DNA of 19,131 bases from Candidatus Nanopusillus sp. (GTDB lineage: Archaea > Nanobdellota > Nanobdellia > Nanobdellales > Nanobdellaceae). Positions 466 to 19,043 of this stretch are shown one piece after another (positions within the stretch are counted from its first letter, which is position 1; each line of letters opens with the position of its first letter). The notes beneath the pieces are model-generated. The model worked only from the letters and a program-made list of their open reading frames with translations. It ran no database searches and was not told where the DNA came from. The stretch is taken from contig JAPWTZ010000011.1 of NCBI GenBank assembly GCA_028275775.1, forward strand, positions 1 through 19,131, read 5' to 3'. Both the position numbers and the translations under genes were made by a program.

Positions 466-3400
466 TTAGCTCTCTTTGAGTTTAATTCCTGTTTTTCTTT
501 CTATAATTTCTTTAACTTTTTTTCTAAGTTTTGATTCTGATATATATTCATTTAACTTTTCTTCAATTTCTTCAGAAATAGAATTATATACCCCTTCAAA
601 ATCTTTTAATATTTTTTCCATAATTGATTCATCCCTTGGTATTTTTACTTCTTTATTTCCAGAAATAGCAGAATAATATATCCATTTTGCTTCTATTGAA
701 GATTTACATCTTATTCTTTCATTACCAAATTTTACATAATATCCAAATATGTCTCTTACAATTTCTATATTTTCTCTTTCTTCTGGTAATTGTATTATTT
801 TTTCTATCTCAATTTTTGGAGATAGATAATTATCTGGAAATTCTTTCAATTTACTTATATCTATTTCACTTATTATTTTTTCGGCGTATGATTCTTCAAT
901 AATTTTCTTTCCTTTTTTATTTTCCTTTTCTACGCTTTTAGCTCTTTCAATTCTTTCCTTTACGAGCTGAATAATAGCTTTATATACATCTAATTGTTCA
1001 TCTTCTGTTAAACCCAAAATTTCACCCATTATAATTTTATCTAACTCTCTTCTATCTGGCTTTACTTTATCTAATGAAACTCCTTCTGGAGAATTAGCAC
1101 CAAGTTCTTCAAAGATAGATCCAATTTCTCGTTTTGAAAAAATATTTATGATTTTTTTAATTCTATTTATTTGCTCTTCCTTAAAAATATTAGGATTGAT
1201 TATTAACATTTTAGCATATTCATATACTTTTACATCAAGGGCTCCTTCACCTAAATTTACTCGTCCCAAGAGTTCAACAAACAGAGGAATAAGAGATGAA
1301 TTCAATATTGCGGAAAGAATTATCTTTTTGTTATTATTGTTTTCTTTTAGTGAAATTCCATAAAGTCTGGCATCAATAAAAGATTTAACATTATTTAACC
1401 AGAAAACATGTCTGTCATTAAAGCTCATCATGGATAATAATTCCCCTTGTATTTCCTCTAGTTCATACCATCTTTTTCTTGAAGCACAAGTGGGCCTTTT
1501 ATGAAATCCTCGAAGTTCTCCCCATTCAATATACTTCAAAACTTTTGTTCCCTTTAGCTCAGATTTATCCTTATGTATTAGAAGAACTCTATATTTTAGG
1601 TTTTTAGGATCAATTAAAATTGATTTACATTCTCTAGGTGATTTTATAACATAATTTGGAATCCAATAAACATATCCATCATCTCTTAAAACATCATCTA
1701 ATTTCATTATTTTAGCATATTGGCTCTCTTTAAAATATTCCCCTCCTTTATCCTTCCATACATGTTCTGGAACCGGCACTTCTTCTTCTTTCTTTAGAGG
1801 ATGCATCCAAAACTCCCTTTCAATGCCCCACCTCTGAATATCATCTTCAGTTAAATAGAAGAATTCATTAGCACCAGTTGTAAATCCTCTTCTTACTTCA
1901 GCAATTTCTTTTAATGGAATAAGTATTCCTTTTCCTTTTCCTTTTTCCAAAATCTTAAAGAATATTTCCGGTGCTCTTATATACTTTCCCCATTTTGAAC
2001 CAACATATTCTTTCTTTTCTTCATCATAACCCTCTTTTAACAATTCCTCTTGGAGTTTTGGGTATATTCTAATCTTATCGTCTTCATATAATTCTTTAGT
2101 ATTTTCTATTTTATTAATCAGATCATCAAGAAATTTAAATCTTCCTTCTTCATCAGCTGGAATCAATTCCCTAAGTGGAACTTTTAATTTAACAAATTTA
2201 ACAAGGTTGTTATTTCTTTCTTTTTCATCATCACATTTCTCTAAAATAGTTATTACTGTATTTATATCTGCATCTGGAAAAACTCTTTCTTTTGTTTCAA
2301 TTATTGCAATTATTTTACAATGTTTTAAGAAAAATTCCTGTAAATCTTTTCCATAATCAACATCCAACCATGAATTTGTTGTAATATATCCTAATCTTCC
2401 TCCATTCTTCAAAAATCTCAGGCTATGAATGAAAAAGTATGCATATATTCCTGCCCTTTTGTTTAACTTTATATTCTCCCCCCAATCTTCTTTTAATGTT
2501 TTTTGTAATTTTTCCTTATAGTTTTCAACATATGCATCTAATTCTTCCTGTCTTGTGTAAGGTGGATTACCAACAACAGCATCTAATTCATCAGGAAGTT
2601 CAATCTCTATACTTTCTCCCCCCAAACTTTCAACCAAAAATTTATTATATCTTCTCCATTCCTTAACTTTACTAACTTTTATATCAAAAAAATCTTTACA
2701 AATTACAATAGGGTTTTCTATTGTACTTAAATCTCTAATAGCAAGATTGATTGTTGTTAAATGTGCTGCAAACTTTGATATGTCAACCCCAATTAACTGT
2801 TTTAATATTTCTTTATGGGATTTAGAAGGATCTAAATGTTTTATCCTAGCATAAGCTCTAACTAAAAATGTTCCAGCACCACAACCAAAATCAGCAACTT
2901 TTGCATTTGGGTCTCTTATACAAAAAGTATTGATTATATCAACTATATCTGGATTTGTAAAATATTGACCAAGTTTATATCTTTCTTCATCTGGAATTAA
3001 TTTATCAAATATATGTCCAATATCTTTATATCCAAGCTTAGAAAAATCATACTTAGATAAACTATTGATAAAACTTCTAAGACTTGGAACTATTGAATTT
3101 GGTATTGGCATTCTTTCCAATAGATCAAAACCAAAAATTGCTTCAAAATCTTTTGTAGTTTTTTCGGCTTTGTCAAAGTATTTTTGTAATTCTCTTTTAA
3201 GAGCTTCTCCATCTTCAATATCTTCTAATATTATTGGTTCTAAAGATGAAAAATTCTTTCTAAGGGCGTTATAGAACATTACTTTATTCATGAGCAGATA
3301 TAAAAACTGTCTAGCAACTTTTTCAAATGGTTCAATATCATCAGTAATTGGTGCACTCCACCCTTGGGACACAAACCACTCAATAAGCTTGTTTCTAAAT

Positions 3401-4023
3401 TCCGCATTCCTTCTAAATTTTTCTCTAATTTCAATAGCAATATGATAATAAACATTATCTACAAAACTTCTAAGGGAATAAATAAAGAATTCATCAATTG
3501 GGATCTTTGGTAATTCTTTTTTTCCTTCTATAAGTTCTGCAAGATCCTTCAAAAACTTTCTTAAACCTTCTTTAATTCTCTTTTGAACTTCAGGATCACG
3601 TATCTCTTTAAGGTCTCTAATTTCAACCAATTTATATATACTTACCCTTTTTTCGTCCCATGAAATAACTTCTTTATGAGTTTCCCAAAGTGCTAATTCA
3701 TTGATATTCCAAGTAGCAAAGAAAGGACTTGTTGGAGGGAGAATAGCTTTTAATTGAGCATCTTCAACTACTTCCCAATCATAAGGGTTCCAACCTTGAG
3801 TAGGATCTTTCAATTCTATATGACAAGCTGGTTTGTTTAATACTTTCCAGATAATTATATCAGGAAATTTTTTTAATTTACCATCAGGTGTTTTTTTCTC
3901 AACATCAACATCAGCTCTCTCAAAAGGTAAGTTATCTTCTTTTATGATTTCATTTATTATTTCAACCAATATTTGTCTAACAGTATTTTCTACATATTTA
4001 ACAGGTTCAGTATTTTTACCCAT
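466..4023 (-). CDS. Type IIG-like fused restriction endonuclease / N6-adenine DNA methyltransferase (single-chain R-M with a C-terminal target-recognition region)
   Basis: 1185-aa ORF. The N-terminus carries a PD-(D/E)xK-type motif, FPD55IIIW…CHIE70LK72 (nt 3808-3861). The methyltransferase has motif X-like GQYFTNPDIV, motif I VADFGCGAGTF (nt 2869-2892) and motif IV NPPY (nt 2557-2568, checked codon by codon). It continues with GIYAYFFIHSLRFLKNGGRLGYITTNSWL and a TaqI-C-like RRGFTTGANEFFYL. This order (nuclease, helical region, gamma-class MTase, TRD) is that of Eco57I/MmeI-type enzymes. Confidence 0.8.
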   Translation of the reverse strand: MGKNTEPVKYVENTVRQILVEIINEIIKEDNLPFERADVDVEKKTPDGKLKKFPDIIIWKVLNKPACHIELKDPTQGWNPYDWEVVEDAQLKAILPPTSPFFATWNINELALWETHKEVISWDEKRVSIYKLVEIRDLKEIRDPEVQKRIKEGLRKFLKDLAELIEGKKELPKIPIDEFFIYSLRSFVDNVYYHIAIEIREKFRRNAEFRNKLIEWFVSQGWSAPITDDIEPFEKVARQFLYLLMNKVMFYNALRKNFSSLEPIILEDIEDGEALKRELQKYFDKAEKTTKDFEAIFGFDLLERMPIPNSIVPSLRSFINSLSKYDFSKLGYKDIGHIFDKLIPDEERYKLGQYFTNPDIVDIINTFCIRDPNAKVADFGCGAGTFLVRAYARIKHLDPSKSHKEILKQLIGVDISKFAAHLTTINLAIRDLSTIENPIVICKDFFDIKVSKVKEWRRYNKFLVESLGGESIEIELPDELDAVVGNPPYTRQEELDAYVENYKEKLQKTLKEDWGENIKLNKRAGIYAYFFIHSLRFLKNGGRLGYITTNSWLDVDYGKDLQEFFLKHCKIIAIIETKERVFPDADINTVITILEKCDDEKERNNNLVKFVKLKVPLRELIPADEEGRFKFLDDLINKIENTKELYEDDKIRIYPKLQEELLKEGYDEEKKEYVGSKWGKYIRAPEIFFKILEKGKGKGILIPLKEIAEVRRGFTTGANEFFYLTEDDIQRWGIEREFWMHPLKKEEEVPVPEHVWKDKGGEYFKESQYAKIMKLDDVLRDDGYVYWIPNYVIKSPRECKSILIDPKNLKYRVLLIHKDKSELKGTKVLKYIEWGELRGFHKRPTCASRKRWYELEEIQGELLSMMSFNDRHVFWLNNVKSFIDARLYGISLKENNNNKKIILSAILNSSLIPLFVELLGRVNLGEGALDVKVYEYAKMLIINPNIFKEEQINRIKKIINIFSKREIGSIFEELGANSPEGVSLDKVKPDRRELDKIIMGEILGLTEDEQLDVYKAIIQLVKERIERAKSVEKENKKGKKIIEESYAEKIISEIDISKLKEFPDNYLSPKIEIEKIIQLPEERENIEIVRDIFGYYVKFGNERIRCKSSIEAKWIYYSAISGNKEVKIPRDESIMEKILKDFEGVYNSISEEIEEKLNEYISESKLRKKVKEIIERKTGIKLKES

Positions 4024-4241: not shown

Positions 4242-4316
4242 TGCCCCCACCGGGATTTGAACCCGGGTCTCGGGGATGAGGACCCCGTATCCTGGACCTG
4301 ACTAGACGACGGGGGC
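4242..4316 (-). tRNA. tRNA-Glu (anticodon CUC), no encoded CCA
   Basis: Manual cloverleaf of the reverse complement: GCCCCCG-UC-GUCU-AGUCAGGUCCA-GGAU-A-CGGGG-UCCUCAU-CCCCG-AGAC-CCGGG-UUCAAAU-CCCGG-UGGGGGC-A. A14, G18G19 and A21 are present and the T-loop is UUCAAAU. The variable region is 4 nt, as is common in tRNA-Glu. The anticodon loop has C at position 33 (see findings). Confidence 0.85.
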
Positions 4317-4594
4317 TATGGATTATTTAATATATATTCAGAATTTTGAGTTATAACTATTATATTTGTTCCATTATCATAACATATAATATTCTCCTCT
4401 AAACAAATATTATAATACGTTTGATTTATAATGGAAGAATAATTTGGATATAATAATAATTTAACATAAAAATCTTCTGCAATATATTTACCAATATTTG
4501 GTTGGTAATAGAAATTGTTTTGTAAATTTGAAACAAAATATAATGTAATAAATAATATTAAGATTAAATATAATAGAATAAATTGAGATCTCAT
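4316..4594 (-). CDS. Small prepilin-like (class III signal peptide-like) secreted protein, paralog 3 of 3
   Basis: The ORF track gives 4316..4600 (MEMRSQF…). The second ATG (4592-4594) forms an ATGA overlap with the upstream stop, so I call MRSQFILLYLILILFITLYFV… as the start. The protein has a short basic N-terminus followed by a hydrophobic helix, then an N/Y-rich, charge-poor body. It shares the C-terminal motif ICYDNGTNIIVIT with its two neighbours. Confidence 0.6.
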   Translation of the reverse strand: MRSQFILLYLILILFITLYFVSNLQNNFYYQPNIGKYIAEDFYVKLLLYPNYSSIINQTYYNICLEENIICYDNGTNIIVITQNSEYILNNP

Positions 4595-4935
4595 TTCCAA
4601 TATATATCTACATAATATATTGAGCCATTAATAATATAAAATGTTTCAATTCCCTGTTCACATTCATTTAAATTCGTATTATTAAATTCAACTTGTCCAT
4701 TTATTTCAACATAATAATATGGTAAAATATTTGTAACAATTTGATATAAACTATTGTTTAGTTGTTGTGTATTATTTAGATCCATATAATTTATTGATAT
4801 TAATGATGCATATAGATCTTCCTTATTATATCCCCCAATATAAAAATTACTATAATATGTTGAAGTTAAAATAAAATATAAAACAATTATTACAACCACC
4901 AATTCAATAAATATTGATATACTAAAAGATCTCAT
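4591..4935 (-). CDS. Small prepilin-like secreted protein, paralog 2 of 3
   Basis: The N-terminus MRSFSISIFIELVVVIIVLYFIL resembles the type IV pilin (F/S)xxIEL hydrophobic helix with a Glu near its start. The C-terminal motif is FYIINGSIYYVDI. There is a 4-nt ATGA overlap with the upstream gene. Confidence 0.65.
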   Translation of the reverse strand: MRSFSISIFIELVVVIIVLYFILTSTYYSNFYIGGYNKEDLYASLISINYMDLNNTQQLNNSLYQIVTNILPYYYVEINGQVEFNNTNLNECEQGIETFYIINGSIYYVDIYWK

Positions 4936-5324
4936 TGAACAAATACACTAACTAAAAATAATGAGCCATCATAATAACAAACCCTATTAAATTCTATATA
5001 ATTTTGCATGTTTGTTATATTATCATTACTAAAAATATATTCCTGACTAATATTACTTAAATTTTTATATATTATTTCATATGGAAAACTTGCTAAATTA
5101 TCCATTATATTTGGATTAAAATTATTTGATGTTAAATTACAAATATTGTTTGTATATTGTTCTGTAATTTCTTTAATTAAAATCCTTCCATGCATAAATT
5201 GATTATATATAATTTGATATTTTTCATTAATATTATAAATATAAGAAACTTTCTCCATTAATAATAATGTAATAAAAAATATTACTAGAACAATTACAAA
5301 CAATTCAAAAAACCTATCTAGCAT
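4932..5324 (-). CDS. Small prepilin-like secreted protein, paralog 1 of 3
   Basis: The N-terminus is MLDRFFELFVIVLVIFFITLLL (basic residue, Glu, long hydrophobic helix). The C-terminal motif is VCYYDGSLFLVSV. It is the first gene of a translationally coupled triplet. Confidence 0.6.
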   Translation of the reverse strand: MLDRFFELFVIVLVIFFITLLLMEKVSYIYNINEKYQIIYNQFMHGRILIKEITEQYTNNICNLTSNNFNPNIMDNLASFPYEIIYKNLSNISQEYIFSNDNITNMQNYIEFNRVCYYDGSLFLVSVFVQ

Positions 5325-7783: not shown

Positions 7784-9547
7784 ATGAAATCTATTTCTCC
7801 AATAATAGCATCAATATTAATTATTGTTATTGTTATTGCAATTTTTCTAATTCTTTATGCATTTGTTTCAGGTATGTTTTCTTCATTAACATTACCTTCA
7901 AATAATTTAGTTAATCAACAATCTAAAGTAATATCATTTACAATAAATAATGTATATTGTTCAAATAATACAATATATTTTGATATATATAATAATGGAA
8001 ATATACCTATTAATATAAATAATTCAATAATAATATTCACTGATAATAATGGAAATACTATATCTATAAATGGGAGTAATGTTATATGTAATAATGGAAA
8101 TATAATTTCTATAGGAAGTAATAGTTTATGTTATATTAACCTGCATCCATGTTATTATAATGATACATATTATATAAAAAGTATGAATTTTATATATAAT
8201 GGAATAAATTATAATTATGATATATTAAATAATAAATTTAATTTAATATTTTCTACTATTAATAATTCTCAATCATTAAATACTACATCTAATTCAAGTA
8301 GTTCTGGTTCTTCTAGTTCAGGTGGTTCGGGTACTTCGAGTAGTCCTCCCTATTCTACTTCAAGTACTCCAACATGTCAATCATCTTATTTACCTTTAAT
8401 ATTATATAATACACAAAATATTCCAACTCCTTCTCCTTTTCAACAAGATATAGCAATATGTAATGGAAGTATTAATATTGGTAATAATTTTGCATATGTA
8501 AATAATGCAACATTATTTAATTGTATAAATCCAAATGGACAAAATGTATATTTTACAACATCATATAATAGTAATCCTAATATTTACTCGTGGTATGAAG
8601 GTCAATTAATTAATGGAAATACATATTGTGATGTTTGGTGGATTAATTTATCAAATGGAATTCCTGCTAATAATAATATAACAATATATATGTACGTAGG
8701 AAATAGTAGTAATAATTATTACCAACAATATTATCCATATGTAGGAACTAATGCGCAAGTTATAGGAACTATGCAATATGATAATGGTAATTATACATTT
8801 ATAGTATATGGATATTTTAATAATACATTTGATGGATGGACTGGATATATATGTTATAGAGCATCCGTTAATTATCTACCCCAAGCAACTCCTTATGGTA
8901 TTGAAATGTTAAATAACACAACTGGTGAAAGTACATATATCTTACCTCCAAATAATTGGAATATCACAGAAATACCTTTAATTGTTGAAGAAGCTTGGTA
9001 TTATGGAGGGGGATCTCCAAATGCAGATGCAAATATAATAGCATTATTTGGAAATACAAGTCAACAATTTCCTCCAGGTAATGTTGGATCTACTTCTGAT
9101 GGTGAGAGTTGTACGTCTAATTTATCTACATTTGTACAATTTGAATATGATGGTGCTGCTCCTCCACCCAATTCTGAAGCAGCAATGTTAAAATCTGCAG
9201 TAACAAATCAATATTTAAATTATACATATCTTCCGCCAAACGGAGGAACATTTTATTCATATTTAATTGTTAATTCATCTTATGCACAAACAGGATATTA
9301 TATTTATAATTCTAATCAAGTATGGGTTCCATTAACATTATTAGATACATATGAAATGTACTATAATATAAGTTATAATGGATCCCTACTTTATGTATAT
9401 TCTAATATCAATTATAATCCATTTCAATATGATACATTAGAAATAAGTGCAGGAGATGGAGTATATACTTCATATCAATATATAGAATGGGTTGTTGCTA
9501 GAGCATATCCTCCAAATGGAGTAATGCCATCAATTTATATTGGTTAG
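7784..9547 (+). CDS. Secreted multidomain surface protein: archaeal pilin-type N-terminus, Ser/Thr linker, DUF2341-like module, ConA/LamG-like C-terminal domain
   Basis: The N-terminus MKSISPIIASILIIVIVIAIFLILYAFVSG fits the archaeal Pilin_N signature (K/R-x-x-SP-[VI]I-x-x-[IV]L…). The linker is SNSSSSGSSSSGGSGTSSSPPYSTSSTPT (residues about 169-197). YLPLILYNTQ…NPNGQNVYFTT…IYSWYEG…YCDVWWINLSNGIPANNNITIYMYVGN fits the DUF2341 pattern as I recall it. The C-terminal signature is YIEWVVARAYPPNGVMPSIYIG. There are many N-x-S/T sequons and very few K/R/E residues. Confidence 0.75.
   Translation: MKSISPIIASILIIVIVIAIFLILYAFVSGMFSSLTLPSNNLVNQQSKVISFTINNVYCSNNTIYFDIYNNGNIPININNSIIIFTDNNGNTISINGSNVICNNGNIISIGSNSLCYINLHPCYYNDTYYIKSMNFIYNGINYNYDILNNKFNLIFSTINNSQSLNTTSNSSSSGSSSSGGSGTSSSPPYSTSSTPTCQSSYLPLILYNTQNIPTPSPFQQDIAICNGSINIGNNFAYVNNATLFNCINPNGQNVYFTTSYNSNPNIYSWYEGQLINGNTYCDVWWINLSNGIPANNNITIYMYVGNSSNNYYQQYYPYVGTNAQVIGTMQYDNGNYTFIVYGYFNNTFDGWTGYICYRASVNYLPQATPYGIEMLNNTTGESTYILPPNNWNITEIPLIVEEAWYYGGGSPNADANIIALFGNTSQQFPPGNVGSTSDGESCTSNLSTFVQFEYDGAAPPPNSEAAMLKSAVTNQYLNYTYLPPNGGTFYSYLIVNSSYAQTGYYIYNSNQVWVPLTLLDTYEMYYNISYNGSLLYVYSNINYNPFQYDTLEISAGDGVYTSYQYIEWVVARAYPPNGVMPSIYIG
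8366..8790 (+). repeat. Conserved paralog block, copy 1 (partner at 17994..18416, same strand)
   Basis: In my manual alignment, residues C198-G335 align without gaps to C171-G308 of the 516-aa protein with 113/138 identical. The nucleotide similarity is obvious by eye, for example caacaagatatagcaatatgtaatggaagtat in both copies. Confidence 0.85.
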
Positions 9548-9768: not shown

Positions 9769-12555
9769 CTAAGCAATTATACATTCAGACCACCCACAAT
9801 CCATACATATAACACAACCAGCTTCATGTTTTAATCTTGTAGATCCACATACAGGACATTTTTCAACTTTATTATTTCCATTTTCTTCAACCCTTAATGT
9901 ATTATTAATATTTGCATTTAATTTTATTTTTGGTACTTCAACATTATTAGTTAATTCATAATACCAGTTTGGTAACTTTATTCCATATTGTTTTAATATT
10001 TCAATTGTTCTATTATTTATTTTTCCTTCTTTAACTAATCTAAAGTAATCCATAAATCTTGCTTTACTTGCTTCTGCAGGAGCTACATATACTTGTGCAG
10101 ATCTTGATCCATCTCTATATATAGTAATTCCTTTACATCCCATCTTATGTGCTAATAAATATGAATAATATACATCATCCGGTTGAACCCAGTTTGGCAT
10201 ATTTATTGTTTTTGATATTGATGTAGTTATCCATATTTGAGCAACAGCCTGTGCCCTTATATGATCCCACCAAGGTATATCTAATGCAGTTAAGAATACT
10301 GCTTTTAAATCATCTGGAATTTCTTTTATTCCCAATAAACTTCCCCCATTATCGGATATTTTCTTTAATATATCATTATTATATAATCCCCTTTCTCTTA
10401 ATTGTCTTTCCAATTCTGGATCTACATAATAATATACACCAGCAGTTACTCTTTTTTCATATACTAAAGAATATTGTGGTTCAATACCTGAAGATGTATC
10501 TGCTAACATTGATATAGAACCTGTAGGAGCAATTGATGTAACTTCAACATTTCTTATTCCATATTTCATTATTTGTTCTTTCAAATATTCCCAATCCAAT
10601 GTCCATAATTCTTTATGATAATATCCTTCTACAGGTAATTCTCCATCTTTATATGTTGTTTGCTCATATCTATCAAATTTACCCCTTGTTTTTGCTCTTT
10701 CAACAGATTCTAACATTGAATAATATGTTAAATATTCTGTTATTTTCATTAATAATTTATATCCTTCCTCTGATGTATATGGAATTCCCAATGCATAGAA
10801 TAAATCTGCCAATCCCATAAATCCAAGTCCAACCCTTCTTACTGCTTTTGAAGCTTCCTCAATTTCTTTTATTGGATATTTATTTACATCTATTACATTA
10901 TCTAAAAATCTATATGCCCATTTTATTGTTTCAATATATTTATCCCAATTAAATTCTGCCTTTCCATCTTTAAATTCAACCAAAGCATACAGATTAATTG
11001 ATCCTAAATTACATGACTCATATGGATATAGAGGCTGTTCTCCGCATGGGTTACTGGCTCTAATTGGTCCTCTATATTTATATTGAACATTTCTTCTATT
11101 TATATTATCCATAAATAAACATCCTGGATCTCCCTTTTCCCATGCAACATATGATGCTTCCTGTAATATTCTATCAGAATTTACATATCCCGTAATTGAT
11201 TCTTTTGGTATTTTATTTATATCAAAATTTGGATCCCCTGGCAAAGGTAAATTATATTTCCTTAATAATCTTGGATTAATTAATGGATATTCTTTTTTAT
11301 TTTCAAAATATTCCCAGAAAGATGGTTCAAACATTATAGATATATTAAAGTTTTCTAATACACCTTCTTTTTCCTTTAAATGAATAAATTTAAATATTTC
11401 AGGATGCCAGGATTCTAAAATTCCCATATTCGCTCCCCTTCTTTTTCCTCCCTGTTTTACTACATCTGTAATTGTATCTATAATTTTCATAAATGAAACA
11501 GGACCTGATGCAACACCTCCAGTAGATGCAACAACATCGCCTTCGGGTCTTAATTTTGAATAATTTATTCCGATTCCACCTCCAGATTTAAATATTAAAG
11601 CTGCTTCTGTTGCTGATTTCATTATTGATTCCATATTATCATCAATATCTAATACAAAGCATGCAGATAATTGACCTAAAACTGCACCTGCATTAAATAA
11701 TGTAGGAGAATTTGGCATAAACCTTTTACTTACCATTAAATCATAATATTGATAGAAATTTTCGTAATATTTGTCAAATTCCCCATTTTCTAACATTTTT
11801 ATAAATTCTGACCATGAAACTTTCATATGGCCTCTTTCATTTAGATAATCGTACAAATATTTCATTCTTTCTAAATGATATCTATTCCATCTAAACTTTG
11901 GATCTTTTATTGGTAATCCATATTTATTTTCATTTTTTTCAAAATCAAATTCTTCTTTTGGATGTACTTTTTGTTTTCCTTCTTTATCATATATCCTTTC
12001 ATCATATAATATATCAGGTATTACAATTAATGCTGCAACCCTTTCAAACATTTGCTTTGGACCTTCTATTAATTCTTTATTTTCATTTCTTAATAAATAT
12101 CTATTTACCATTAATCTAATCGAATTAACAGAGAATCTTTTTGCAACTTCCTCTTCATAGAATTTTCCCAATAAATTTTTCTTTTCTTCTCTTATCTTTT
12201 CTTTTTCTTTTCTATAAGAAATATATGCTTTAGCAACATCATATAAATCAAATTTCAATAAAGATAATTCAACAATATCCTGAATCTCTTCAACAGTTGG
12301 ATATTTTGTATTATCATATTTTTCTTCTAATACTTTTATTACATAATCAACAACTTTTTCCAATTTTTCTTTATCATATTGACCAACAGCTTTCATTGCT
12401 CTTTCTACAGCATATTTTATTCTTTCGGGATCAAAATCAACAACCCTCCCATCTCTTTTAATAACTTTTTTTATTTTATAATTTTTTTGTCCTAAAACAA
12501 TCTCTTTTTCTTTTTTTTCATTTGAAAAATCATTTATAAACCCCTCATCACTCAT
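9769..12555 (-). CDS. nrdJ: Class II (adenosylcobalamin-dependent) ribonucleotide reductase with an N-terminal ATP-cone and a C-terminal Cys4 zinc ribbon
   Basis: The ATP-cone is KVIKRDGRVVDFDPERIKYAVERA. The active-site loop SNPCGEQPLYPYESCNLGSINL has the NPCGE motif typical of class II. The C-terminus is KCPVCGSTRLKHEAGCVICMDCGWSEC. No intein-like insertion is visible. Confidence 0.85.
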   Translation of the reverse strand: MSDEGFINDFSNEKKEKEIVLGQKNYKIKKVIKRDGRVVDFDPERIKYAVERAMKAVGQYDKEKLEKVVDYVIKVLEEKYDNTKYPTVEEIQDIVELSLLKFDLYDVAKAYISYRKEKEKIREEKKNLLGKFYEEEVAKRFSVNSIRLMVNRYLLRNENKELIEGPKQMFERVAALIVIPDILYDERIYDKEGKQKVHPKEEFDFEKNENKYGLPIKDPKFRWNRYHLERMKYLYDYLNERGHMKVSWSEFIKMLENGEFDKYYENFYQYYDLMVSKRFMPNSPTLFNAGAVLGQLSACFVLDIDDNMESIMKSATEAALIFKSGGGIGINYSKLRPEGDVVASTGGVASGPVSFMKIIDTITDVVKQGGKRRGANMGILESWHPEIFKFIHLKEKEGVLENFNISIMFEPSFWEYFENKKEYPLINPRLLRKYNLPLPGDPNFDINKIPKESITGYVNSDRILQEASYVAWEKGDPGCLFMDNINRRNVQYKYRGPIRASNPCGEQPLYPYESCNLGSINLYALVEFKDGKAEFNWDKYIETIKWAYRFLDNVIDVNKYPIKEIEEASKAVRRVGLGFMGLADLFYALGIPYTSEEGYKLLMKITEYLTYYSMLESVERAKTRGKFDRYEQTTYKDGELPVEGYYHKELWTLDWEYLKEQIMKYGIRNVEVTSIAPTGSISMLADTSSGIEPQYSLVYEKRVTAGVYYYVDPELERQLRERGLYNNDILKKISDNGGSLLGIKEIPDDLKAVFLTALDIPWWDHIRAQAVAQIWITTSISKTINMPNWVQPDDVYYSYLLAHKMGCKGITIYRDGSRSAQVYVAPAEASKARFMDYFRLVKEGKINNRTIEILKQYGIKLPNWYYELTNNVEVPKIKLNANINNTLRVEENGNNKVEKCPVCGSTRLKHEAGCVICMDCGWSECIIA

Positions 12556-15712: not shown

Positions 15713-16528
15713 ATGATTGCTGGATTAGAAATACATCAACAAATTGATACAAAAGAAAAATTGTTTTGCAATTGTCCTACAAATTTAAGTGATAAATATG
15801 ATTATAGAATTGAAAGAAAATTGAGAGCAACATTAAGTGAAATTGGAAAAAAGGATATTGCTGCAGAATATGAGACAATGAAAGATAAAAAATATATATA
15901 TGAATATTCTAAAGATTATTCTTGTTTAGTTGAACTTGATGAAGAGCCTCCACATTTAATTAATATTGAAGCACTAAAATTTGGAATATTAATTTCAACA
16001 TTTTTTAATATGTATATACCAAAGGTTTTACAGGTTATGAGAAAAATTGTTGTAGATGGATCAAATACCTCTGGTTTTCAAAGAACATTATTATTATCAT
16101 TAAATGGAGAATTAAAATATAAGGATAAAAAAATAAGTATAGGAACAATTTGTATTGAAGAAGATGCTGCAAGAAAAATTGAAGAAGGAGAAGATTATAT
16201 AATTTATAGATTGGATAGATTGGGAATACCATTGATAGAAATATCTACAGGTCCAGATTTAAGAGATCCAAAAGAAGTAAAAGAAGTAGCTGAATATATT
16301 GGATTAATATTAAGATTAACTGGAAAAGTAAAAAGAGGGTTGGGAACTATTAGACAGGATGTAAATATATCAATAGAAAGGGGAGAAAAAATTGAAATAA
16401 AAGGTGTACAGAATTTAAAAATAATAGATAAAGTTTGCGAACTAGAAGTGAAAAGACAGGAAAGGATGATAGAATGGAAAAAGATTATGAATGAAAAGGG
16501 TATTGAAGGATATGAATTAATAGAATAG
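15713..16528 (+). CDS. gatE: Glu-tRNA(Gln) amidotransferase subunit E, N-terminal fragment only (split or truncated gatE)
   Basis: MIAGLEIHQQIDTKEKLFCNCPT, RLDRLGIPLIEISTGPD and GLGTIRQDVNISIERGEKIEIKGVQNL are GatE/GatB cradle-domain signatures. The ORF stops at 271 aa, right after the E-x-x-RQ element. Full-length GatE is roughly 600+ aa. Confidence 0.75.
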   Translation: MIAGLEIHQQIDTKEKLFCNCPTNLSDKYDYRIERKLRATLSEIGKKDIAAEYETMKDKKYIYEYSKDYSCLVELDEEPPHLINIEALKFGILISTFFNMYIPKVLQVMRKIVVDGSNTSGFQRTLLLSLNGELKYKDKKISIGTICIEEDAARKIEEGEDYIIYRLDRLGIPLIEISTGPDLRDPKEVKEVAEYIGLILRLTGKVKRGLGTIRQDVNISIERGEKIEIKGVQNLKIIDKVCELEVKRQERMIEWKKIMNEKGIEGYELIE

Positions 16529-16559: not shown

Positions 16560-17039
16560 ATGAAAACTCAATTCGGAACAATTCTTGTAGAAATTATATT
16601 ATTTATAGTTGCAGGTATTGCTGCTTATATATTTGTTTCTACTGCATATAATAATTTAAATGGAATAAGTAATGCTGCAATTGCAAATTCTCAATCATTA
16701 GAAAATCAATTAAATACTTATATTACACTAGATTCTTGTGCATATAATAGTACAACAAATTTATTATATTTCTATGTAACAAATAGAGGAAGTGTTGTAC
16801 TAAATCAAAATTTAACATTATTGTTTATTAATGGAGAACTAATAAATAATACTCAAATATATATTGCAAATAGTTATACTGGTACTTCTGCTTGGGGTCC
16901 ATATGATACAATTGCAATTGTTGCAAATATTTCTTTAGCAACAAACTTTTATCAGGTAAGAATTGTAGCATCTACTGGAGCATATGCACAGGATATAATA
17001 TATGTTAATACAACTGCAGGTACTTGTACAATAGAATGA
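16560..17039 (+). CDS. Prepilin-like / FlaF-FlaG-like secreted protein with a class III signal peptide
   Basis: In MKTQFG|TILVEIILFIVAGIAAYIFV, a Gly is followed by a hydrophobic helix with Glu at +5, the classical type IV prepilin cleavage context. The body contains LYFYVTNRGSVVLNQNLTLLFINGE, a beta-sandwich motif (x-N-x-G-x…φ-x-φ-N-G) resembling archaeal FlaF/FlaG and pilin domains. Confidence 0.65.
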   Translation: MKTQFGTILVEIILFIVAGIAAYIFVSTAYNNLNGISNAAIANSQSLENQLNTYITLDSCAYNSTTNLLYFYVTNRGSVVLNQNLTLLFINGELINNTQIYIANSYTGTSAWGPYDTIAIVANISLATNFYQVRIVASTGAYAQDIIYVNTTAGTCTIE

Positions 17040-17482
17040 GATCAGATTTAGGATCAATTATTGGGGCAATTATTGGATTTGTTATTTTTATTGTTTCTTC
17101 ATCAGTTTTATATTTAATTTTAAATAATTATTATAAAAACTTTTATTATACAGCAAATTCAATAGATAATCAAATAAAAAATATTGTTGGAGAAAATATA
17201 AAATTTTTAAATAATCAAACAAACTATTCAAACCCTTATTTGATTATATATAATAATGGAAACAAAGCATTGGATTTATCTTGTTTTCAATTATATGTTA
17301 ATGGTTATTTTTCTTCATTTAATTATTCTATAAATTATTTATATTCATCAAATCTATTATTACCAGGAGAAAATGCAACAATATATTTTGGTAATAATTA
17401 TTTAGTAAATAATTCATGGAATTATATAATATTGGTATCCTGTTATGGGGTTAAGTTTCAAACTTTAATATATGCTAATTGA
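17036..17482 (+). CDS. Prepilin-like secreted protein
   Basis: The first ATG (17036) overlaps the upstream TGA as ATGA. The track's earlier start at 17024 is a TTG. The N-terminus is MRSDLGSIIGAIIGFVIFIVSSSVLYLIL. The motif YLIIYNNGNKALDLSCFQLYVNG parallels the neighbouring gene. Confidence 0.6.
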   Translation: MRSDLGSIIGAIIGFVIFIVSSSVLYLILNNYYKNFYYTANSIDNQIKNIVGENIKFLNNQTNYSNPYLIIYNNGNKALDLSCFQLYVNGYFSSFNYSINYLYSSNLLLPGENATIYFGNNYLVNNSWNYIILVSCYGVKFQTLIYAN

Positions 17483-17492
17483 TTAATATAAT

Positions 17493-19043
17493 ATGAGATT
17501 ACAATCTGAAACATTTATAGCATTAATATTATTAGTAGCAGGTGCTCTTGCTACTGTTATGATATACAATATAATATTTCCAAATTTAAATATAATAAAT
17601 CCTTCTGGACAAGAAATTTCAAGATCTTTAAAATTGAATTTCCAATTATTAGATTATTATATAGCAAATAATACATTATATGCATATGTAAAACCCTCAG
17701 AACCTGTTAATTATTCTCAAGTATTTGCAATTTTAAATAATAGGTTAGTTAATGTTTATCCTTATAATTCAAATGGATCTATTGTAAATCCATATAATAA
17801 TGGTTTATTAATTGTTGTTGCAAATTTGTCACAAATTCCTCCGGATCAAAATGGAAATTATGAATTAGAAGTTGGATTAGAAAATGATATAATTGGAATA
17901 TTTGATATAAAATATATTTCAAATACATTAATTAATTATTTTCAACCCCCAATTGTTTTTAATATATCAACATCTACATCAAGTACCCCAACCACCCCAA
18001 CCTGTCAATTATCATATTTACCTTTAGTAATATATAATACTCAATCTATTTCAACTCCTTCCCCATTTCAACAAGATATAGCAATATGTAATGGAAGTAT
18101 AAATATAGGAAATAGTTTTGCATATATAAATAATGCAACGTTATTTAATTGTATAAATCCAAATGGTCAAAATGTATACTTTACTACAACTTATAACAGT
18201 AATCCAAACATATATTCATGGTATGAAGGTCGATTGATTAATGGAAGTACTTATTGTGATGTTTGGTGGATAAATTTAACAAAAGGTATCCCTGCTAATT
18301 CAAATATAACTATTTATATTAATATAGGACCAAATAGCACTAATTACTATTCTCAATATTATCCATATGTTGGTGCACCTATACAAGTTTTAGGTACTTC
18401 TCAATATGATAATGGACAATATGTATTTAATTATTATCAAAACTTTGGAAATCTAAGTTCATTACCTTCACCATGGACTTATGTATATAATAATCAAAAT
18501 AGTGTTTCTTTTTCTACAAATTATACAATTATCCCATATTCATCTTCTGGTAATGAAGGTATTACTACAACAGTAAACTTTAATATACAAAATAATATAT
18601 TACAAATTTATGCTTCTGTTCCAACTACAAGCGGTACAAGTTGGGATTATATAGATTTAGGTGTAGGTGCAGCAAATAATAGAAATACATACTTTATTGG
18701 TGGCGGAGGTGGACTTATAGCTGGTGGTAATAATAATGGTGCTGCATTTACATATCCCAATTCAGGATCCGCAGGCAAATTTAATTTATATGTAGGGACT
18801 TCTAATGTAGGAAGTACAACATATAATTATGCTCCAACAATATATGAAATTGGATTTTCTAGTAGTTATACATATTTCTTAGTAAATTATACTCAAATAT
18901 TGAGTACTACAACAATACCTGGCTCATTTAGTTTACCAATAACAATAGGACAACAAAACTCGGGTAATAATATATACTTATATTGGGTTTTATTAAGATC
19001 ATATCCACCTAATGATGTAATGCCTTCAATTTATATTAGTTAA
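17493..19043 (+). CDS. Secreted multidomain surface protein, paralog of 7784..9547: FlaG/pilin-like N-terminus, Thr/Ser linker, DUF2341-like module, Gly/Asn-rich ConA/LamG-like C-terminal domain
   Basis: The N-terminus is MRLQSETFIALILLVAGALATVMIY. The linker is NISTSTSSTPTTPT. A 138-aa block is about 82% identical to the 587-aa protein. The C-terminal signature is YLYWVLLRSYPPNDVMPSIYIS. I count only 14 charged residues in the last 346. Confidence 0.75.
   Translation: MRLQSETFIALILLVAGALATVMIYNIIFPNLNIINPSGQEISRSLKLNFQLLDYYIANNTLYAYVKPSEPVNYSQVFAILNNRLVNVYPYNSNGSIVNPYNNGLLIVVANLSQIPPDQNGNYELEVGLENDIIGIFDIKYISNTLINYFQPPIVFNISTSTSSTPTTPTCQLSYLPLVIYNTQSISTPSPFQQDIAICNGSINIGNSFAYINNATLFNCINPNGQNVYFTTTYNSNPNIYSWYEGRLINGSTYCDVWWINLTKGIPANSNITIYINIGPNSTNYYSQYYPYVGAPIQVLGTSQYDNGQYVFNYYQNFGNLSSLPSPWTYVYNNQNSVSFSTNYTIIPYSSSGNEGITTTVNFNIQNNILQIYASVPTTSGTSWDYIDLGVGAANNRNTYFIGGGGGLIAGGNNNGAAFTYPNSGSAGKFNLYVGTSNVGSTTYNYAPTIYEIGFSSSYTYFLVNYTQILSTTTIPGSFSLPITIGQQNSGNNIYLYWVLLRSYPPNDVMPSIYIS
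17994..18416 (+). repeat. Conserved paralog block, copy 2 (partner at 8366..8790)
   Basis: See copy 1. The alignment is ungapped and all four Cys residues are conserved (C171/C199/C220/C255 versus C198/C226/C247/C282). Confidence 0.85.

Follow-up and report, generated by a model that had tools for sequence, protein, structure and literature searches.

A candidate modular pilin-like adhesin of Candidatus Nanopusillus, with a lectin-like head that has rudiviral homologues

Described relatives of the fusion protein

To our knowledge, no adhesin with which DPANN archaea or Nanoarchaeota recognize and hold their specific hosts has been demonstrated. The DNA analyzed here, referred to as the window, is contig JAPWTZ010000011.1 of a Candidatus Nanopusillus sp., a tiny parasitic archaeon of hot springs (assembly GCA_028275775.1), 19,131 nucleotides (nt) in length with a GC content of 19-31%. 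An open reading frame (ORF) with an ATG start at 7784-9547 on the forward strand, exactly where an earlier note on this DNA had placed it, encodes a protein of 587 amino acids (aa) that joins a pilin-like N-terminus to a lectin-like head. Computational analysis established the domain identities and fold of this protein, the expansion and mosaicism of its family, and its viral homology. It is identical (100%) to database entry P0001, which is annotated just as a "hypothetical protein."

Pilins that carry additional modules are widespread (PMC8179133). PilC of Streptococcus sanguinis is a fusion of a pilin, an immunoglobulin (Ig)-like domain, and a concanavalin A (ConA)-like lectin, with measured binding to host glycans and a modelled location at the tip (PMC9934059). 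For Bacteria, this precedent contradicts the statement in the earlier note that no experimental characterization of the architecture was known. The two proteins resemble each other in having a class III signal and pilin module, a loop or linker, and a ConA-like lectin module, with a beta element (Ig-like or sandwich) before the lectin. PilC differs in being bacterial, in having the IPR012902 N-methylation motif and a shortened pilin moiety, in being encoded in a pil locus, and in being stabilized by PilA. The Nanopusillus protein has a full-size pilin module that is archaeal, of the UpsA/archaeal type IV pilus (AT4P) kind, is encoded by a lone gene, carries a head of ~390 aa that is DUF2341/L-type-lectin-like, and is known from sequence alone.

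In Methanococcus, DUF2341 proteins of the Epd pilus locus (arCOG03508) are predicted to be pilus-tip adhesins (PMC4858521), and transposon hits in M. maripaludis MMJJ_08210 abolish transformation (PMC10133366). The Methanococcus proteins are large, are encoded inside pilus loci, and have not been described as pilin fusions, whereas the protein of this DPANN parasite is a direct pilin-DUF2341 fusion encoded away from a pilus locus. Within the same organism family, MJ1_0179 of Nanobdella aerobiophila combines an N-terminal transmembrane helix with an Ig-like fold and a lectin domain of the legume/ConA-like kind, and was proposed to be a host-recognition factor; filaments were seen at Nanobdella-host contact sites (bioRxiv 10.1101/2023.10.27.564410). 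MJ1_0179 resembles the Nanopusillus protein in architecture and is treated here as an analogue. Its N-terminus was not read as a pilin in that paper, which reports neither a cassette structure nor viral homologues.

Two further systems from the Sulfolobales are relevant. UpsA pilins, which provide the best-scoring named model for the N-terminal domain of the Nanopusillus protein, recognize S-layer N-glycans (PMC7064770), binding through their own pilin domain and without a head. The sugar-binding proteins of the Sulfolobus bindosome, which lack a pilin globular domain, show that large cargo other than a pilin can follow an archaeal class III signal (PMC3047682).

Pilin module, linker, and head

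All of the segments listed in the earlier note are present in the protein. The features of the gene, with the evidence for each, are as follows.

7784..9547, forward: whole ORF (587 aa and a stop codon), coding for a modular pilin-like protein with a "T1" anchor and a DUF2341/lectin-like head
7784..7792, forward: leader M-K-S with a predicted class III (prepilin-type) site after Ser3, Lys at -2 and Ser at -1 (orthologue conservation; Iho670 alignment)
7793..7876, forward: hydrophobic N-terminal alpha-helix, aa 4-31, a pilin polymerization helix or membrane anchor (AlphaFold; orthologue matches to TIGR02537 and Pilin_N)
7877..8278, forward: Asn-rich pilin globular domain, aa 32-165, a beta-sandwich (AlphaFold strands; UpsA model; 8fk7 match)
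8279..8374, forward: Ser/Gly/Thr/Pro-rich disordered linker, aa 166-197, of varying length across orthologues (predicted local distance difference test [pLDDT] <50; low identity)
8375..8824, forward: N-terminal sub-domain of the head, aa 198-347, starting with PLILYNTQNIPTPSPFQQDIAICNG and ending in an invariant YDNG motif; common to the paralogue in the window and rudiviral proteins
8534..8707, forward: DUF2341 (PF10102) core, aa ~251-308, mapped from orthologue P0079
8825..9544, forward: C-terminal sub-domain of the head, aa 348-587, a ~17-strand jelly roll, L-type-lectin-like (head model; Foldseek)
9074..9193, forward: most variable stretch among orthologues, aa 431-470, predicted inter-strand loops (column entropy; secondary structure from the head model)
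9500..9532, forward: C-terminal signature RAYPPNGVMPS, kept in paralogues from Nanopusillaceae, in homologues from Parvarchaeota and Marsarchaeota, and in rudiviral proteins of the ORF564 family

The protein contains 15% Asn, 11% each of Ser, Tyr, and Ile, and merely 1.2% Lys plus Arg, and has 23 N-X-S/T sequons. The N-terminus is MKSISPIIASILIIVIVIAIFLILYAFVSG. The C-terminus is ...EWVVARAYPPNGVMPSIYIG (also given as ...PPNGVMPSIYIG); the end quoted in the earlier note lacked the five final residues.

The first ~165 aa appear, by profile comparison, to behave as a complete archaeal type IV pilin, consistent with the N-terminus proposed in the earlier note. The NCBIfam UpsA model matches aa 1-106 (E 4.9e-14). 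The protein is not UpsA, since the score of 52.6 bits is far below the equivalog cut-off of 130. A profile of the N-terminal domain matched the solved filament subunits 8fk7, 5kyh, 9myg, 3j1r, 8gi2, and 7ofq. The alignment with the type IV pilin of Pyrobaculum calidifontis (8fk7) extends through aa 85 (E 2.8e-6); E is 0.0015 for Ignicoccus Iho670 (5kyh) and 0.0043 for 9myg. A haloarchaeal pilin, one from Natrinema, and an archaellin are among the subunits matched. Pilin_N is matched by 41 of 61 orthologues (E<=0.1) and Arch_flagellin by 26. The protein itself scores 13.7 against TIGR02537 (cut-off 20) and 15.6 against Arch_flagellin (cut-off 29.5); orthologues P0050 (32.1) and P0072 (23.8) exceed the TIGR02537 cut-off.

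The deposited mature N-terminus of Iho670 (VSPVIATLL... in 5kyh and 3j1r) aligns with ISPIIASIL... from Ile4, and cleavage is therefore predicted after M-K-S. Class III processing depends on a charged residue at -2 and Gly, Ala, or Ser at -1 (PMC4371748), a rule with which M-K-S/I-S-P-I-I-A agrees. The pattern [KR]-S-ISP[IV][IV] is conserved across full-length orthologues, where the -2/-1 pair is [KR]-S, with Ala once and Thr once, and the leaders of all proteins with the T1 anchor are merely 3-5 residues long. AlphaFold predicts a helix at aa 6-31, followed by a poorly ordered connector and beta-sandwich strands at aa 52-146 (pLDDT 70-84). In archaeal pili, unlike archaellins, the helix is short and gives way to a loop (PMC10334743), and the layout in the model is AT4P-like rather than archaellin-like. 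The protein also has the N-terminal pilin module, linker, and additional module that define a modular pilin according to Raynaud et al. 2021. The bacterial IPR012902 motif of the modular-pilin survey is inapplicable to archaeal pilins (PMC8179133).

The linker, NTTSNSSSSGSSSSGGSGTSSSPPYSTSSTPT, occupies aa ~166-197, and aa 159-196 are predicted by AlphaFold to be disordered (pLDDT <50). It is the least conserved part of the protein in length and sequence. Only 15% of its positions match the query across orthologues, and in many of them it is just ~10-15 residues long. Both the Asn-rich beta domain (aa ~32-165) and the Ser/Gly/Thr/Pro linker described in the earlier note were recovered.

The head (aa 195-587) was modelled alone with a deeper alignment that included distant homologues. 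It is predicted to be a single unit of ~25 strands (pLDDT 92.1; predicted template modelling score 0.92). Foldseek comparison with the PDB returned only L-type lectins as top matches, namely legume lectins, ERGIC-53/LMAN1, and VIP36 (probability 1.00; E 4e-7 to 3e-5; template modelling [TM] score 0.5-0.66; 10-12% identity over 255-280 aligned columns), which supports the jelly-roll or lectin fold suggested previously. Across the Foldseek comparisons, legume lectins and ERGIC-53 are matched at E 3e-7 to 1e-5 (TM score ~0.6). The shared feature is a two-sheet jelly roll, and the head is ~160 aa larger than L-type lectins. Neither the protein nor its 61 orthologues matched Lectin_legB, Lectin_leg-like, or Laminin_G in Pfam and NCBIfam. 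A search of PDB sequences with the head profile gave nothing at E<=10, hence no solved enzyme was matched.

Because paralogues keep the first ~150 aa of the head yet can have a different second half, the head is read as two packed sub-domains, a putative DUF2341 sandwich (aa 198-347) against a lectin-like jelly roll (aa 348-587). That the lectin match belongs to the C-terminal half is suggested by the number of strands and the length of the alignment. The DUF2341-like module of the earlier note holds at the level of the family; the protein itself has no DUF2341 match in Pfam at E<=0.1. The gathering cut-off for DUF2341 (PF10102) is 23.4 bits, and orthologue P0079 scores 27.2 bits across its aa 77-135, equivalent to aa ~251-308 here. 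DUF2341 is matched in 14 of the 61 orthologues, and the distant whole-head homologues P0165, P0203, and P0158 score 28.4, 26.0, and 23.7 bits, respectively. Membership of the protein in DUF2341 is assigned by transitive homology. Profile and structure searches of the kind named in the earlier note (Pfam/NCBIfam, AlphaFold, and Foldseek) have returned matches to pilins, lectin folds, and, for the family, DUF2341.

Conservation within the head is uneven. Among orthologues with the T1 anchor, mean column entropy is 1.66 at aa 431-470 (peak of 1.96 at aa 451-465) compared to 0.3-0.9 elsewhere, and the variable loops are at aa 430-443 and 455-465. Residues invariant among distant head homologues are mostly aromatic, Gly, or Pro, with one invariant Asp (Asp333).

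The head family: copies, anchors, and viral homologues

The main context beyond the earlier note is a multi-copy family of shuffled cassettes, a second copy in the window, and homologues in rudiviruses. An exhaustive profile search with the head recovered 703 cluster representatives at E<=1e-3, 66 of them at E<=1e-30. Named homologues come from Candidatus Nanopusillus, Ca. Nanobsidianus stetteri, Nanobdella aerobiophila, and "Nanoarchaeota archaeon YN1," and the window is syntenic with Nanopusillus and Nanobsidianus contigs at 90-94% nucleotide identity. These relationships place the DNA in the Nanopusillaceae and agree with the reduced, host-attached archaeon that had been proposed as its source. 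A contig scan for head loci used two peptide patterns typical of close relatives and detected loci in Nanopusillaceae only. This result does not bound the family, because the patterns suited close relatives and the 703 clusters include Parvarchaeota and Marsarchaeota. The scan revealed at least four head loci in Nanopusillus acidilobi 7A, at least four in Nst1, at least six in YN1, and at least five in Nanobdella MJ1, among them a 537-aa T1 protein with 36% identity in the head. The Nanopusillaceae genomes with 4-6 head loci are only 0.6-0.8 Mb in size.

The head occurs on at least five types of N-terminal anchor, and some family members have tandem heads.

T1: M[KR]SISPIIA pilin, the type of the gene at 7784-9547
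T2: MRLQSE... helix and beta domain
T3: MARSQLYLY...
T4: ordinary Sec signal peptide with a C-terminal membrane anchor
T5: helix-only, [KR]S

A class-III-type N-terminus fused to the head is also found in one Parvarchaeota protein and one Marsarchaeota protein. In Nanobdella aerobiophila MJ1, three T1 proteins (L039, L048, and L051) are identical over their first ~50 residues but differ in their heads, as though a single pilin "handle" were used for several cargoes. In addition, a 357-aa ORF on the reverse strand of L023 and protein P0281 join the SISPIIA N-terminus to a more canonical DUF2341 start (FSYYRPI..., YRYLRDIIIDN...); the 357-aa fusion has no pilin beta domain.

The second copy in the window lies downstream of two small genes.

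17493..19043, forward: second family member, 516 aa; T2 anchor (MRLQSE... helix, beta domain, Ser/Thr linker), the same N-terminal sub-domain of the head, and a "variant B" C-terminal sub-domain
16560..17482, forward: two small ArlF/ArlG-like genes, 159 and 152 aa, immediately preceding that for the 516-aa protein (E 6.6e-14 and 8e-4 with NCBIfam ArlF, each under the cut-off; Pfam Arch_flagellin E 2.1e-9)

The three-gene cluster at 16560-19043 (forward strand) joins archaellum-stator-like genes with the head-bearing 516-aa protein. The two family members in the window are 79% identical in amino acid sequence, and this similarity is limited to the DUF2341 sub-domain (aa 198-347). The sole long repeat in the window is a direct repeat of 300 nt with 87% identity (8356-8655 and 17984-18283). 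Similarity of the second gene to N. acidilobi and two other genomes ends at nt 18429, which is the YDNG motif, with a different second half beyond it. The repeat and the break in similarity at YDNG suggest recombination or gene conversion at conserved junctions.

The locus at 7784-9547 gives a further example of replacement. It is syntenic in Nanopusillus sp. CON-C-r01, with the order L22, S3, mutase-like gene, X, and ribonucleotide reductase and flanks that are 90-92% identical. X in CON-C-r01 (P0089) is a 463-aa protein with a helix-only anchor in place of the pilin anchor, and its head is only 75% identical. The closest nucleotide match to the head (82%) is carried by a T2 anchor in another genome. 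The mosaic of cassettes and anchors, together with the variable loops, has the apparent signature of a recombining, fast-evolving surface family. This pattern agrees with the excess of non-synonymous single-nucleotide polymorphisms in nanoarchaeal "hypothetical external" surface proteins and type IV components (PMC6142677).

Hypervariation of the head by a diversity-generating retroelement was also considered. No ORF in the window has a reverse transcriptase domain and the window contains no template/variable repeats, and this source of variation was rejected.

Homologues of the head extend to viruses. In a Foldseek search of predicted viral structures, the best match was BFVD A0A5P9U552, a protein of 1311 aa (34% identity; E 7e-29), for which no counterpart turned up in the phage or IMG/VR searches run. 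Proteins of SEV1, TTV1, and SPV2 were also matched, as were a protein of Sulfolobales Beppu rod-shaped virus 1 that contains DUF2341 and a "putative lectin" of SBFV3. Searches with tblastn revealed 27-29% identity across 95-97% of the head in SSRV1, SRV, SMRV1, and SMV1, where the homologue is annotated as a structural protein, and IMG/VR contigs (putatively SIRV1, SIRV2, and ARV1) add more homologues. The viral proteins are 530-595 aa and have in common with the head the start TITNSQ..PTPSPFQQ, the YDNG motif, and the exact C-terminal RAYPPNGVMPS. Rudiviral homologues score 23.8-26.8 bits against DUF2341 (cut-off 23.4), and hhalign of the head with the rudiviral family gave a probability of 99.94% (E 4.6e-37). 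Based on these alignments, the head is assigned as a homologue of a conserved rudivirus minor structural protein, the SIRV2 ORF564 family. The proteins of this family (SIRV1/2, ARV1, SRV, SMRV1, and SSRV1 gp22) and the SMV1 protein have the homologous head with the common start, YDNG, and end motifs. The ORF564-family proteins have an unrelated ~230-aa N-terminal region instead of the pilin module, and are virion components. In SSRV1, gp22 directly precedes a gene for a ~1100-aa minor structural protein of the tail-fibre family, and rudiviruses are known to grip host pili via terminal fibres (PMC7911016). The literature searched contains no paper on SIRV2 P564 and none linking the rudiviral protein with nanoarchaeal proteins.

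Proposed host attachment and competing explanations

The favored reading, for which confidence is about evenly balanced, is that the protein is a modular pilin-like adhesin in which a flexible linker joins the pilin module to a rigid, ~390-aa lectin-like head that contacts the host. The protein would be inserted through Sec. Its helix would hold it in the membrane and would let it join, as a low-abundance subunit, a type IV filament or a short stub resembling a pseudopilus. The simplest position would be at the tip or close to it, although one along the shaft is conceivable where the linker permits. The head would then bind a component of the crenarchaeal host surface, such as the glycosylated S-layer or pili, and contribute to host recognition and attachment. 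A role in host contact is suggested because the head is homologous to structural proteins of viruses infecting Sulfolobales, is multi-copy, is found on several anchors, and has variable loops. The host and N. acidilobi bear different surface glycans (PMC4935971). A mosaic pattern is evident in the family, and recombination of heads and anchors among paralogues at PFQQDIAI, YDNG, and YPPNGVMPS may serve to produce strain-specific repertoires.

Several results weigh against this reading. No pilus assembly genes lie beside the gene in the window or beside its orthologues at their loci. Its neighbors are a phosphoglycerate-mutase-like gene and ribonucleotide reductase, and orthologues have S8e on one side and an XPD-like helicase on the other. 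Linkage to an assembly ATPase or TadC is not obligatory, since pilin genes commonly stand alone (PMC4858521). Makarova et al., surveying type IV systems across Archaea, found that two nanoarchaea had no A24 prepilin peptidase (PMC4858521), and the gene table of N. acidilobi has no such annotation. A scan of ~550 kb of Nanopusillaceae loci with a GxGD-type regular expression for the A24 peptidase also found none, a result that is uninformative because genome coverage was partial. The N. acidilobi orthologue, Nps_01425, recognized by its position between S8e and "helicase c2," has no proteome values. No stand-alone short pilin with the T1 N-terminal domain was found: a search with this domain yielded nothing apart from fragments of the long family itself, and a motif scan of the ~550 kb of loci returned only fused proteins. 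The protein itself scores under the curated cut-offs for UpsA, TIGR02537, Arch_flagellin, and DUF2341. The likeness of the head to lectins is at the level of fold only (10-12% identity; TM score ~0.6), and the rudiviral homologue has no assigned function to transfer to the head. The earlier view of a pilin-anchored adhesin is therefore retained for its parse into anchor, linker, and DUF2341/ConA-like cargo, and display on a filament is weakened by the lack of adjacent pilus genes, of an identified A24 peptidase, and of proteome values for Nps_01425.

The machinery of nanoarchaea is a related observation. In N. acidilobi, the listed genes include two for TadC proteins and others for a FlaJ-like protein, a FlaI-like ATPase, and archaellins (Wurch 2016, supplementary file 2). 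An A24 peptidase has not been identified in nanoarchaea, although they encode archaellins, TadC/FlaJ, FlaI-like ATPases, and pilin-like proteins whose class III motifs are canonical (PMC4858521; Wurch 2016).

The explanation that competes best, a possible though less probable one, is that the protein is a cell-surface tether. The N-terminal helix would stay in the membrane, either uncleaved or cleaved and unassembled, as in ArlF/ArlG or the Sulfolobus bindosome proteins, and the beta domain and linker would serve only as a stalk, keeping the head level with the S-layer or outside it. An unassembled, membrane-tethered lectin is a serious rival because the gene is unlinked, no peptidase has been identified, no short pilin was found, and Nps_01425 has no proteome values. 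It is also consistent with the presence of the same head on proteins with a Sec signal and C-terminal anchor and on helix-only anchors, including P0089 at the syntenic locus, with the location of the sister gene after ArlF/ArlG-like genes, and with the description by Kato et al. of the analogous Nanobdella protein simply as having an N-terminal transmembrane helix. However, the N-terminus has the canonical, conserved pattern of a processing site followed by the SP[IV]IA hallmark of assembled pilins, and the globular domain is homologous to polymerizing pilins rather than to ArlF/G models. Moreover, related nanoarchaea assemble archaellum-like filaments, which requires some way of handling class III substrates.

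Two other readings, a lectin-studded homopolymer and an enzymatic head, are less likely than a membrane-tethered lectin. In the first, which seems unlikely, T1 proteins would be the major subunits, polymerizing together through their full-size pilin modules into a thick filament with a head on every subunit. At ~160 aa the pilin module is full size, whereas that of S. sanguinis PilC is shortened; this fits such a role, as do the lack of a separate short pilin with the T1 domain, the several T1 paralogues per genome with near-identical N-termini and differing heads, the long and disordered linker, and the thick filaments reported for Nanobdella (15 nm at contact sites; 50-80 nm by scanning electron microscopy; bioRxiv 10.1101/2023.10.27.564410). 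However, the N. acidilobi orthologue was undetected in the proteome, which would be odd for a major subunit, the linker in many orthologues is too short to clear neighboring subunits, and no filament structure of this kind is known. That the head is instead a ConA-like glycanase or lyase that remodels or breaches the glycosylated S-layer of the host is very improbable and was rejected: glucanases and lyases also have the ConA-like fold and Kato et al. propose degradation of the host envelope by other Nanobdella surface proteins, but the top structural matches are all lectins with no hydrolases, no solved enzyme is matched in sequence, the invariant residues include a single Asp, and inspection shows neither a GH16-type E-x-D-x-x-E strand motif nor a catalytic-type motif conserved in distant homologues, where the strand IVEEAW is also not kept.

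Some neighboring genes in the window are of separate interest. Three consecutive small ORFs at 4316-5324 on the reverse strand (94, 114, and 130 aa) each have an N-terminal hydrophobic helix and are ~90% identical at the nucleotide level in Nanopusillus CON-C-r01. The first (MEMRSQFILLYLILILFITLYFVSNL) is similar to the anchor MARSQLYLY...FYFVSNL found on other paralogues that carry the head, and the three may be minor pilin-like proteins. The B12-dependent ribonucleotide reductase at 9769-12555 (reverse strand) has 928 aa, compared to 1300 aa in a related Nanopusillus (syntenic locus, L043 5784-9686); the additional ~1.1 kb of the longer gene, at window position ~11045, is probably an intein. 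At 466-4023 on the reverse strand is a 1185-aa Eco57I/MmeI-type N6-adenine methyltransferase fusion, a type IIG/IIL-like restriction-modification protein. The ORF at 15713-16528 (forward strand; 271 aa) has only the GatB/GatE catalytic domain and may represent a split gene of the kind characteristic of Nanoarchaeota.

The modular-adhesin reading can be extended to a bolder proposal, which is speculative and held to be doubtful. The head may be a host-recognition cassette exchanged horizontally between rudiviruses and nanoarchaeal ectoparasites on Sulfolobales/Acidilobales-type hosts. Nanopusillaceae might then switch host specificity by recombining heads and anchors at the three junction motifs (PFQQDIAI, YDNG, and YPPNGVMPS), with some heads displayed on type IV filaments that are assembled without the canonical A24 peptidase. 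The pilin-lectin architecture has precedent, and the idea that lectin-like nanoarchaeal proteins recognize the host is already published. Relative to the literature searched, the full archaeal pilin module on these proteins, the organization into cassettes with defined junctions, the allelic replacement of an anchor at a syntenic locus, and the homology to a rudiviral structural protein appear to be new.

Finally, the meaning of the family depends on how the head is used. If the protein is merely a membrane-tethered lectin, it is a reasonable yet ordinary candidate for host contact. If the head binds host S-layer glycans or pili, the attachment strategies of parasite and virus would be linked, and the modular-pilin principle would be extended from Bacteria to Archaea. 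The family provides clonable adhesin candidates in two cultivated systems, N. acidilobi with Acidilobus and Nanobdella with Metallosphaera.

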